Shown: piece after piece, positions 1,640-5,148 of the stretch
Position numbering within the stretch: position 1 is the first letter of the stretch
How the letters are laid out: each line of letters opens with the position of its first letter
Assembly (NCBI GenBank): GCA_902619045.1
Contig: CACNCX010000001.1
Coordinates: forward strand, 592-64,591
Reading direction: 5' to 3'
Length of the DNA stretch: 64,000 nucleotides
DNA from: an uncultured Alphaproteobacteria bacterium
GTDB lineage: Bacteria > Pseudomonadota > Alphaproteobacteria > HIMB59 > GCA-002718135
Made by a program: the position numbers and the translations under genes
The notes under the pieces: generated by a model
The model's input: only the letters and a program-made list of their open reading frames with translations
Database searches by the model: none
Told to the model about the DNA's origin: nothing

Positions 1640-1667
1640 TATTTAACTCCATATAAAATTATAAACA

Positions 1668-1688
1668 CATAACTAACCTTTAGTTATG
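1668..1688 (-). promoter_or_regulatory. Leader hairpin between the riboswitch aptamers and the amt1 SD (expression-platform candidate)
   Basis: Minus strand CAUAACUAA-AGG-UUAGUUAUG followed by UGUUUAUAAUUUUAUAUGGAG. The amt2 leader has a hairpin at the same position with a different sequence. Confidence 0.5.
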
Positions 1689-1730
1689 CATTACTTCATG
1701 CGTAGCTATGGAAATTAATTAATAAGATCC

Positions 1731-2391: not shown

Positions 2392-3678
2392 TTAGTCTCT
2401 GATGCTGTAAGCCATAACACCTACTTCAGATTTATCAGTACCAAGTTTTTCAGCTTCTTCACTAATTCTAATACCAAAGAGCATTTTCATGATGTACCAA
2501 ATGATAAATGATACAACAAAAACGAAAACATTAATTGCAATTATACCGTAAAGTTGTGCGCCAAAACTTGCTGCACTATTAGAAATTGGAACAACTAATG
2601 TTCCAAAAATTCCAGCAAAACCATGTACAGGAATTGCTCCAACAACATCATCAATTTTAAATGAAATTAAAAGTCTTGTTCCATAGAACACAATTAATCC
2701 ACCAATTGCACCAATGATTACTGCTAGGAATGGCGAAGGTGCTAATGGTTCTGCAGTAATTGCTACTAAACCACCTAGTGCACCATTAAGCATCATTACA
2801 ACATCTGTTTTACCAGTTACTAACCTTGAAATAACTGCACAAGCCATTACACCTGCACCAGCTGCCAAGTTAGTATTTATATATATAGTCGCTACTGCTG
2901 TAACGTCATCGAATGTACCCATTGCTAATTGTGATCCACCGTTAAATCCGAACCATCCGAGCCATAGAATAAATACACCAAGAGTTGCAAGAGGTATTGA
3001 AGAATTTGCAAAAGGCTCCATTGGAGCTGCTTCACCGCTATCAGTGAAACGTCCTAATCTTGGACCTAGTAAAATCGCACCAGCTAGTGCTGCTGCTGCC
3101 CCTGCACTGTGAACTAGAGTTGATCCAGCAAAATCTGAGAAACCTGCTTCTGCTAAGTATCCTCCACCCCACTGCCAACCCATTTCGATTGGATAGATGA
3201 AACCAGTTAATAAAGCACAAAAAATAAAGAATGGCCAAATTTTGATTCTTTCAGCTAGTGTTCCAGATACAATTGAGCAAGTTGTTGCACAAAATACCAT
3301 CTGAAAGAACCAGTCAGAACCATCTGAATAACCTGTATCAAGAGCGCTACCATCACTCCAAGGAAGTGGAGATCCAATAAAACCGCCTGCAGGAATGCCA
3401 TATGCCATGTTATATCCAACTAACCAGAACATTAAACCAGCTATTGAATATAAGCCTATATTTTTTGCAGCAATTGTTGCTACACTTTTGGACGTAACAA
3501 GTCCTGATTCAAGCATTGCAAATCCTGCTGCCATCCACATGACTAAGAACCCAGATACAAGAAATAGGAATGTATTTAAAATGTATTGCACTTCACCGTC
3601 TACTTCGGCTCTTGCATATGAACTGAAGAGCATAAAGACAGCAAGAATGCTAATGAAATATATAGATTTTTTTAACAT
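2392..3678 (-). CDS. amt: Ammonium transporter (Amt/AmtB family), paralog 2, 428 aa
   Basis: About two-thirds identical to paralog 1 by eye, with the same length and C-terminus (RISEEAEKLGTDK.EVGV.AYSIRD). Start moved from 3708 to the ATG at 3678 (MLKKSIYF...). That start has a GGAGG SD at 3683-3687 and aligns with the paralog 1 N-terminus. Confidence 0.95.
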   Translation of the reverse strand: MLKKSIYFISILAVFMLFSSYARAEVDGEVQYILNTFLFLVSGFLVMWMAAGFAMLESGLVTSKSVATIAAKNIGLYSIAGLMFWLVGYNMAYGIPAGGFIGSPLPWSDGSALDTGYSDGSDWFFQMVFCATTCSIVSGTLAERIKIWPFFIFCALLTGFIYPIEMGWQWGGGYLAEAGFSDFAGSTLVHSAGAAAALAGAILLGPRLGRFTDSGEAAPMEPFANSSIPLATLGVFILWLGWFGFNGGSQLAMGTFDDVTAVATIYINTNLAAGAGVMACAVISRLVTGKTDVVMMLNGALGGLVAITAEPLAPSPFLAVIIGAIGGLIVFYGTRLLISFKIDDVVGAIPVHGFAGIFGTLVVPISNSAASFGAQLYGIIAINVFVFVVSFIIWYIMKMLFGIRISEEAEKLGTDKSEVGVMAYSIRD

Positions 3679-3889: not shown

Positions 3890-3965
3890 GATTACTGATT
3901 TAGTTTAATATTAATTTTTAGTAAGATTATAATCGTTAACATTAATATGCAAAAAATGCATATAG

Positions 3966-3995
3966 TAATATTTCCCTGTTTTATGGGAAATATTA
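3966..3995 (-). terminator. 11-bp hairpin immediately after the upstream oxidoreductase gene
   Basis: taatatttccc (3966-3976) / gggaaatatta (3985-3995), 8-nt loop, starting 1 nt after the stop at 3997. On the minus strand it is followed by CUAUAUGCAUUUUUUGC, a displaced U-run. Confidence 0.5.
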
Positions 3996-3996
3996 G

Positions 3997-5148
3997 CTAT
4001 TTTATTGTTGATAAATCAGTCCAAGCAGAGTTATTGTTACTAGAATTTACACTTGCATTAATAAATTTCATAATATGCAAACCATCATCAATATTTGGGA
4101 GTAACTTTAATAAATATTCCTTATTTTCCTTATTTTGTATAACATCGGCAGCGTCTGAATAAATCTGTGCAAATGCTTCAAGATACCCTTCTGGATGACC
4201 AGCAGGGATTCGCACGTTAGCCTCAGTTCCTTCAACTTTGATAGAACCGCCCCTTGTTATTATTTGGCTAGGTTCTCCTACTTTACTAAATGTTGCATAA
4301 TTTGGATTTTCTTGACTCCATTTTAAAGCTCCCTTTTCTCCATAAATAGCTACAGTAAAATTATTTTCTTCTCCTGTCGCAACTTGAGAGATAGATAATG
4401 AGCCCTTAGCTCCGTTGTTTAATCTTATCATTATTGACGCATCGTCATCTAATTTTCTTCCTTCAACAAATGTTGTAAGATCTGCACTAACTGATTGTAA
4501 TTTTAATTGAGTTATAAATTCCAATAAATGCATAGTGTGACTACCAATATCACCTACACCTCCTGCAGCTCCACTTCTTAAGGGATCTGTTCTCCATTCT
4601 GCTTGTTTATTTGAACCAGAATCCTCTTCTTTTGATCCAAGCCATCCTTGCAAATAAGATCCTTTAACAATTCTTATTTTTCCAAGTGCTCCATTTTCAA
4701 TAAGTGATCTCATACCTCTAACAACTGGATATCCAGAATAATTATGAGTTAAGAAAAAATGAGCATCAGATTTAGAAACTGCATCAACTAATTTATGAGC
4801 ATCTTCCATTGAAGAGGTCATAGGTTTGTCACAAATGACATGAATATTTTTATTTAGAAATTCAATTGCTGGTGCAGCATGCATATGATTTGGTGTAACA
4901 ATAGATACTACATCAATACCATCATCTCTTTTAGCTTCTTCCTCAGCCATCGTTTTAAAATCAGGATAACTTCTTGAAGGATCGAGACCAATTTCTTCAG
5001 CAGATTTTGCTGCTTTTTCTGGAGTTGAAGATAAACAACCAGCAACAAATTCATATTTATCATCCATTCTTGCACATAGACGATGAACAGCTCCAATAAA
5101 AGCTCCTTGACCACCACCTATCATTCCTAATTTTAATCTTTTTGCCAT
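3997..5148 (-). CDS. Gfo/Idh/MocA-family NAD(P)-dependent oxidoreductase
   Basis: N-terminal Rossmann motif LGMIGGGQGAFIG, plus typical family length and C-terminal alpha/beta domain. Confidence 0.85.
   Translation of the reverse strand: MAKRLKLGMIGGGQGAFIGAVHRLCARMDDKYEFVAGCLSSTPEKAAKSAEEIGLDPSRSYPDFKTMAEEEAKRDDGIDVVSIVTPNHMHAAPAIEFLNKNIHVICDKPMTSSMEDAHKLVDAVSKSDAHFFLTHNYSGYPVVRGMRSLIENGALGKIRIVKGSYLQGWLGSKEEDSGSNKQAEWRTDPLRSGAAGGVGDIGSHTMHLLEFITQLKLQSVSADLTTFVEGRKLDDDASIMIRLNNGAKGSLSISQVATGEENNFTVAIYGEKGALKWSQENPNYATFSKVGEPSQIITRGGSIKVEGTEANVRIPAGHPEGYLEAFAQIYSDAADVIQNKENKEYLLKLLPNIDDGLHIMKFINASVNSSNNNSAWTDLSTIK

Follow-up and report, generated by a model that had tools for sequence, protein, structure and literature searches.

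Every glutamine riboswitch that has been characterized experimentally is an ON switch (PMC6212724, PMC6698751), as the earlier note on the DNA analysed here had supposed. According to a secondary account of the crystal structure (PMC11477058, section 2.3), glutamine inserts a junction G to pair with a C at the base of helix P1. In gifB, the C located 3' of P1 and its neighbours pair with the ribosome-binding site (RBS), and melting of this helix gives the ON output (PMC6212724, section 20). Klahn et al. (2018) considered that for the marine glnA-associated versions, whose effect and taxa were then unknown, ‘negative regulation is reasonable’ (PMC6212724, section 22). glnA RNAs have already been reported as tandem copies and in front of ammonium transporters (Weinberg 2010, PMC2864571; Sherlock 2022, PMC9481103), and 157 doublets have been classed as pseudo-cooperative (PMC9481103). 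In Pelagibacter HTCC1062, riboswitch-like structures were described in the 5' UTRs of amt and amtB (Smith 2013, PMC3870248); a release of translation at falling glutamine or ammonia was speculated, and these genomes lack PII and NtrBC (PMC3870248).

The window analysed here is a 64,000-nucleotide stretch with a G+C content of 31% from a SAR11-related marine bacterium. It is matched best by single-cell genomes that carry the label of uncultured Alphaproteobacteria or of Pelagibacteraceae (AG-422-N03, AG-909-O11, and others), with 100% identical Amt. The HTCC1062 structures share with this locus the ecological group and the regulated function; they were described as novel, with an unknown ligand (PMC3870248), whereas the window lineage has bona fide glutamine aptamers. 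Two amt genes lie on the minus strand, each preceded by aptamer A, a linker, aptamer B, a conserved block, a hairpin, and the RBS, in this order (Table 1). The coding sequences share 68.6% nucleotide identity, falling to 51% at third codon positions, and the 100 nt upstream of the aptamers are 59% identical; judging from the saturated third codon positions, the paralogs are old.

Several other features surround the two genes. The open reading frame (ORF) between them matched no Pfam family at a threshold as loose as E ≤ 10; in metagenome locus L285, where amt has seemingly been lost, a homolog of 123 aa comes directly after a type I tandem leader (defined below). Inverted repeats with G+C at 2322-2341 and 3966-3995 look like intrinsic terminators of upstream minus-strand genes, one following amt2 and the other a 383-aa ORF (3997-5148). 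The 64 kb contain one copy of a perfect palindrome, ATGCA-N5-TGCAT, at 3947-3961, where it overlaps the -35 element of a sigma-70-like promoter (hexamers 3953-3926, minus strand) just upstream of the amt2 leader. TGCA-N6-8-TGCA palindromes also stand upstream of amt in aptamer-less Pelagibacter genomes (L062, L072, L080, L066, L075), and the palindrome of the window may be an operator for a nitrogen-responsive transcription factor, added on top of the riboswitch.

Four matches to the Rfam family RF01739 (Glutamine) were found, scoring 55.4-61.8 bits where the gathering score is 35; all cover the model at full length (1-53), and no other Rfam family matched either leader at E ≤ 1. Model alignments recover the signature of the class: P1 (CGUUC/GAACG), the junctions CGGAAGUA and GAAGGAAC, and, directly 3' of P1, a C here called the linchpin C, with all of these columns invariant in 77-119 leaders. 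The linchpin C of aptamer A lies at 1798 in amt1 and 3839 in amt2, and aptamer B is followed by C-GGA at 1731-1728 and 3771-3768, respectively. The location also fits the class, which is found in 5' leaders of nitrogen-metabolism genes (two amt genes here, glutamine synthetase (GS) type I in relatives). We assign the four elements to the glutamine riboswitch aptamers of the RF01739 class and predict from their sequences that they bind glutamine.

Table 1. Genes and leader elements of the two amt loci, in window coordinates
Feature	Sequence	Position	Strand	Basis or remark
amt1 CDS		353-1639	minus	ORF; 428-aa ammonium transporter; Pfam Ammonium_transp, E = 2.5e-96
amt1 RBS		1653-1637	minus	UAUGGAG (1653-1647) through start AUG (1639-1637)
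amt1 hairpin	CAUAACUAA-AGG-UUAGUUAUG	1688-1668	minus	minimum free energy (MFE) fold; covariation
amt1 block	GGAUCUUAUUAAUUAAUUUCCAUAGCUACGCAUGAA	1730-1695	minus	34/36 identical to amt2 copy
amt1 aptamer B (proximal)		1782-1728	minus	RF01739, 55.4 bits; inside P0
amt1 linker, 5' strand of P0	CAUGCAAAGUUAUUAAAU	1798-1781	minus	pairs with block in MFE fold, RNAalifold, and duplex test
amt1 aptamer A (distal)		1849-1795	minus	RF01739, 60.2 bits
ORF between amt genes		1917-2291	minus	124 aa
amt2 CDS		2392-3678	minus	ORF; ammonium transporter, protein 66.6% identical to Amt1
amt2 RBS	AAUGGAGGAUUAAUG	3690-3676	minus	opening cost rises when tails are released
amt2 hairpin	CAUGACUCA-AUG-UGAGUCAUG	3726-3706	minus	MFE fold; two compensatory changes relative to amt1 hairpin
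amt2 block	GGAUCUUAUUAUUUAAUUUCCAUAGCUAAGCAUGAA	3770-3735	minus	34/36 identical to amt1 copy
amt2 aptamer B		3823-3768	minus	RF01739, 56.9 bits
amt2 linker, 5' strand of P0	CAUGCAAAGUUAUAAUAU	3839-3822	minus	MFE fold and duplex test
amt2 aptamer A		3890-3836	minus	RF01739, 61.8 bits

The conserved non-aptamer block that the earlier note described in both leaders is real. It spans 36 nt with the consensus GGAUCUUAUUA(A/U)UUAAUUUCCAUAGCUA(C/A)GCAUGAA, and the identity of its two copies far exceeds that of the coding sequences and the upstream flank. In amt1, it comprises the GGA tail of aptamer B (1730-1728), the segment UUUCCAUA (1714-1707; 3754-3747 in amt2), AUAGCU (1709-1704), and GCAUG (1701-1697). 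Across 77 related amt leaders, drawn from single-cell genomes and from metagenomes, UCCAUA and GCAUGA never change, and the two positions before UCC are nearly always U. Since this identity has persisted despite the divergence of old paralogs and their flanks, the block is under constraint as tight as that on the aptamer cores. Such constraint, a position outside the aptamer model, and a potential to pair with the Shine-Dalgarno (SD) sequence also back the suggestion that it belongs to an expression platform, of which it is very probably a part.

Relatives of these leaders were collected in two ways. A scan based on Amt, with one genome per species, yielded 80 loci, about 40 of which (Amt at least 83% identical) have tandem aptamers and the block; no aptamer was found in the more distant Pelagibacter amt loci of this set (L040-L080). 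The pattern used for the metagenome scan specified only two aptamers 14-30 nt apart, so the resulting set of at least 120 loci is unbiased toward the block. Combined, the sets hold about 120 unique leaders of a single family; since these are phylogenetically related, leader counts given here are counts of non-independent events. Type I leaders precede amt and carry a block of the form ..AAUUUCCAUA(G/A)CUANGCAUGA, while type II leaders precede GS type I with a block of the form ..(G)AUUUCAUAACUAG(A/C)GCAUGA. A gene for a circularly permuted ATP-grasp protein also follows leaders with a type I-form block (CCAUAGCUAAGCAUGA). The genes under this platform, amt, GS type I, and ATP-grasp, fit repression under replete nitrogen.

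Other arrangements of glutamine aptamers were met in the same collections. A third design, with different tails and without the block, precedes GS-II-like genes; it comprises aptamer doublets or triplets (L203, L224, L237, L238, L295, L307, L313, L318), in which each aptamer is followed by a similar hairpin tail containing CCGUUAA, with a GS-II-like gene or a 205-aa porin-like ORF downstream. It looks like a set of genuinely independent, repeated aptamer-plus-hairpin units. Phage doublets (IMG/VR contigs L081-L200) have a linker of 3-14 nt, and their aptamer B is followed at once by a short SD hairpin. Such short-linker tandem aptamers are present in more than 120 viral contigs, where they precede small ORFs that start with MTKYQ... 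or MTMWTRYCR..., and their SD hairpin covaries (GCAUCU/GCACCU/GCAAUCU with GGAGAUG/GGAGGGUG/GGAGAUUG); a long linker occurs in only 1 of the 121 viral contigs with tandem aptamers that were listed. Apparent singlet versions of the platform in the collected loci were all contig-end or regex artefacts. In a metagenome contig with both leaders (L286), the amt2-type leader runs into an amt coding sequence without SD or N-terminus; this may be a natural deletion variant or else an artefact of assembly.

The hairpin that follows the block changes freely in sequence. The earlier note had rightly placed it at the same position in both leaders, but the two sequences, which it called unrelated, are homologous: the 9-bp stems differ by exactly two compensatory pairs (A-U to G-C and A-U to C-G), and across 77 leaders 8 of the 10 hairpin pairs are changed on both sides. 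In amt-type leaders, its loop (e.g., 1677-1679) nearly always contains GG (AAGG, AUGG, ACGG, GAGG...); this patch of SD-like purines is not kept in glnA-type leaders.

The 18-nt linker between the aptamers holds neither a terminator nor an SD, as seen in a terminator scan and duplex tests; instead, it is complementary to the block beyond aptamer B. The resulting helix, P0, pairs CAUGC-AA-AGUUAU of the linker with AUAGCU-AN-GCAUG of the block, with AUAGCU at 1709-1704 contributing to its 3' strand in amt1, and encloses aptamer B. P0 appears in single-sequence MFE folds of both window leaders. The RNAalifold consensus of 77 amt leaders contains P0, a GGA..UCC tail hairpin in which the GGA tail of aptamer B pairs with UCC of the block, and the covarying hairpin, and leaves the SD unpaired. 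Duplex energies of linker and block are -11.0 kcal/mol in amt1 and -11.6 kcal/mol in amt2, values matched by 2.4% and 0.8% of shuffled linkers, respectively, and range from -9 to -11.5 kcal/mol in 60/60 linker/block haplotypes. In the unconstrained ensemble, the CAUGC:GCAUG pairing has a probability of 0.75 in amt1 and 0.99 in amt2; its mean over 120 leaders is only 0.46, with P0 in only 52% of MFE folds. The two strands also occur together, a downstream GCAUG being present in 115/115 unique leaders with a CAUGC linker versus 4/75 with other linkers.

In the 77-leader alignment, 98.3% of P0 cells are paired. Six of its 11 pairs are invariant, two show compatible one-sided variation (A-U to G.U and U.G to U-A), and there are no compensatory double changes. 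Because the pairs are nearly invariant, covariation neither proves nor disproves P0, and the same holds for GGA:UCC; what supports the modelled helix is conservation, energetics, and co-occurrence, from which we infer that it may also form in vivo. The third design lends P0 no independent support, since duplexes of its GCGCCGUUA... linkers with the trailer are no better than those of shuffles. The P0 internal loop (AA/AN or AAA/AGA) was inspected as a possible kink-turn and does not fit the consensus. Two frozen strands beside freely covarying helices are what is expected of strands with two alternative partners.

The second candidate partner of the block is the SD. As the earlier note proposed, UUUCCAUA can pair with UAUGGAG in amt1 over 7 bp, one of them G.U, and with AUGGAG(G) in amt2 over 6-7 bp. 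This complementarity stands, but its significance does not: the duplex reaches -8.0 kcal/mol in amt1, a value equalled by 1 of 28 control SD regions of the window, and -6.4 kcal/mol in amt2, equalled by 21% of control SD regions, while for a longer segment set against the entire initiation region, 20-23% of control regions and 8-38% of shuffles reach the same level. Taken alone, the window leaders have an anti-SD complementarity that is not beyond chance in an AU-rich context. By MFE folds, RNAalifold, and duplex tests, the linker, not the SD, is predicted to be the thermodynamically dominant and conserved partner of the block. Comparisons between leaders suggest that block and RBS are co-adapted. 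Cognate block/TIR duplexes are ~2 kcal/mol better than cross-type swaps (I-I, -8.5; II-II, -7.9; swapped, -6.3); CC blocks are accompanied by UGGRG SDs in 35 of 37 unique amt initiation regions, and by UGAGG in none; and in glnA leaders the block AUUUCAUA matches UAUGAAAU at the start codon. In a small divergent group of amt leaders, the block has hardly any C or none (AAUUUAAUAACU in L216, AAUUCAAUAACU in L258, AAUUCAGUAACU in L211) and SD complementarity is weak, and this group, including L216 and L258, retains P0.

Folding of the leaders with and without aptamer constraints, which the earlier note had called for, was run as a two-state model. The apo state enforces both P1 helices and nothing else; the holo state additionally keeps k nt 3' of each P1 unpaired (k = 5), an assumption based on how secondary sources describe the crystal structure. 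Under this assumption, the cost of opening the SD core in amt leaders rises from 2.74 (apo) to 5.06 kcal/mol (holo), with an increase in 60 of 81 and a decrease in five, and that of opening the RBS (-14..+5) rises from 3.80 to 6.57 kcal/mol, with an increase in 65 of 81. In related glnA leaders, the RBS cost goes from 6.31 to 9.01 kcal/mol (35 of 38 rise); here the SD core itself is unchanged and only the start-codon region shifts. The two window leaders follow the trend, with opening costs going from 2.26 to 5.60 in amt1 and from 1.72 to 3.41 in amt2. Applied to 77 unique phage tandem leaders of the short ON design, the same procedure gives a fall from 6.26 to 1.73, seen in 77/77. The suggestion that the switching logic may differ from that of characterized switches is thus supported by these models, which give the OFF direction here and the ON direction for phage leaders; this is also the direction expected of an ammonium transporter, which would logically need repression by glutamine.

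In the holo model, UUUCCAUA and its upstream flank pair with the RBS. Release of the aptamer A tail has the larger effect, and in the window leaders the release of A and B together is more than additive. With two tails predicted to pair with one block, and a single block after aptamer B, the aptamers do not appear to have a platform each. The modelled occlusion of the RBS on tail release agrees with the proposed SD sequestration coupled to the aptamers. Because its dominant partner is the linker, the block is better seen as the middle of a relay running from the aptamer tails through the block to the RBS than as a simple anti-SD.

These observations suggest a mechanism in which the block would be the central switching strand of one platform shared by both aptamers, most likely a translational OFF switch, a proposal whose chances on the modelling we judge to be about even. 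At low glutamine, the block would be clamped from either side. P0 would form between its 3' half (AUAGCU, GCAUG) and the tail of aptamer A together with the linker (C-AUGC, AGUUAU), and the C-GGA tail of aptamer B would pair with UCC of the block, leaving the RBS open for Amt to be made. At high glutamine, each aptamer would capture the C directly 3' of its P1 as a ligand-dependent linchpin pair. Capture would melt the attached helix, on the same principle that releases the RBS in gifB; here, it would release the block. The freed UUUCCAUA and its AU-rich 5' flank would then bind the region from UAUGGAG to the start codon, lowering translation. Both ligand-sensitive tails would hold the same block, as the linchpin C of aptamer A makes the first pair of P0 and C-GGA leads into the UCC helix. 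We infer from the models, therefore, both that glutamine would melt P0 and that the freed block would occlude the RBS. A further claim, made more tentatively and with somewhat less than even confidence, is that this may be the first OFF-type glutamine riboswitch, a two-input gate in which two aptamers jointly clamp one anti-RBS strand and both need high glutamine.

The same data may be read differently, with P0 as a purely architectural helix serving cooperative or pre-organized binding in the manner of glycine riboswitches, control residing elsewhere (mRNA decay, Rho, or another element), and the UUUCCAUA:SD match being incidental. We consider this unlikely, yet it has real arguments: P0 is the best-supported pairing, the block:SD complementarity of the window leaders is insignificant, and L216 and L258 keep P0 without a C-rich anti-SD. 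However, a structural helix should covary like the hairpin and the P2 stems of the aptamers, and both P0 strands are frozen instead. Moreover, ligand binding and P0 compete directly, since the first pair of P0 takes up the linchpin C of aptamer A (PMC11477058), and in constrained folding P0 release increases RBS occlusion in two gene classes, with the phage control moving in the opposite direction.

An ordinary ON switch, in which glutamine raises amt translation, for instance for Amt paralogs used in export or another nitrogen-replete role, seems improbable. It has precedent in all tested glutamine riboswitches (PMC6212724, PMC6698751) and in the Pelagibacter HTCC1062 Amt paralog SAR11_1310, which was found in nitrogen-replete cells only (PMC3870248). 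Yet in the ON design the tails 3' of P1 are paired to the SD itself, with covariation, whereas in the leaders described here they pair with the block, and the apo SD is already open, at a cost of 2-3 kcal/mol versus 6.3 in ON leaders. The same platform also precedes GS type I, whose activation by glutamine would be counterproductive.

It is decidedly improbable that the block is conserved through a bound protein, a trans-acting RNA, or recent gene conversion between the leaders rather than through RNA switching. Extreme sequence invariance without covariation would be in keeping with such causes, as would the ORF without a Pfam match between the amt genes. Gene conversion, however, cannot explain invariance over 77 leaders from many genomes, with Amt identity down to ~80%, or a related block before glnA genes, and for each of its segments the block has complementary RNA in the same leader. 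The block has no Rfam match, and a search of viral contigs for its 15-mer TAATTTCCATAGCKA returned at least 120 matches, none of those listed adjoining an aptamer, which were rejected as related platforms and attributed to chance.

Transcription attenuation, with the hairpin after the block as an intrinsic terminator whose formation depends on P0, is scarcely credible: the hairpin covaries strongly and is followed by a U-rich stretch in amt1-type leaders, but it was not called in a terminator scan of the minus strand, its stems are AU-rich, amt2-type and glnA-type leaders have no U tract, it forms in apo and holo models alike, and with a freely changing sequence next to an invariant block, no conserved alternative pairing between the two is possible.

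We return, then, to the translational OFF switch with the block as its switching strand, and to the systems it most resembles. The Synechocystis gifB type 1 glutamine riboswitch has the same aptamer class and the same capture of a linchpin C that melts an attached helix (PMC6212724; PMC11477058). In gifB, a single aptamer melts a helix with the RBS, giving ON, and regulates a GS-inactivating factor; in the window, two aptamers would melt helices with the ends of an anti-RBS block, and leaders of this type precede amt and glnA. The predicted output is OFF because the melted helices free a block that is complementary to the RBS. In cyanophages and marine metagenomes, tandem glnA RNAs likewise have two complete aptamers in series at nitrogen genes (PMC2864571, PMC9481103). 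Whereas phage doublets combine their short linker with an SD hairpin, the SAR11-type leaders have a conserved 18-nt linker pairing with the block, followed by the covarying hairpin.

The tandem glycine riboswitch has a linker that pairs with the 5' leader, also termed P0, and forms a kink-turn. Likewise, the leaders described here have two aptamers for one ligand, a platform that both are predicted to share, and a linker paired to a flanking strand; in the glycine riboswitch this strand is the 5' leader, whereas in the window it is the 3' trailer, and the helix encloses aptamer B. No description of a linker:block helix or of an OFF-type glutamine platform was found in the literature searched, the coverage of which left Ames & Breaker 2011 outside. 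What is new is a variant platform, with predicted switching, on a known riboswitch class, the aptamers, their tandem arrangement, and the association with amt having been known before.

The locus places marine glutamine-riboswitch leaders in SAR11-related single-cell genomes and reveals a conserved platform in which linker, block, hairpin, and RBS take part. Tandem glutamine aptamers, it suggests, need not be independent ‘pseudo-cooperative’ units in every case but can share one platform, and the proposed relay offers a concrete mechanism for inverting the output of a helix-melting aptamer. If the proposal is true, glutamine bound to both aptamers would shut off ammonium transporters and, in related leaders, glutamine synthetase, which would answer what the glnA-associated marine glutamine riboswitches do. 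The PII/NtrBC-poor SAR11 group, whose genome-streamlined members count among the ocean's most abundant bacteria, would then have a protein-free nitrogen feedback on the uptake and assimilation of ammonium.
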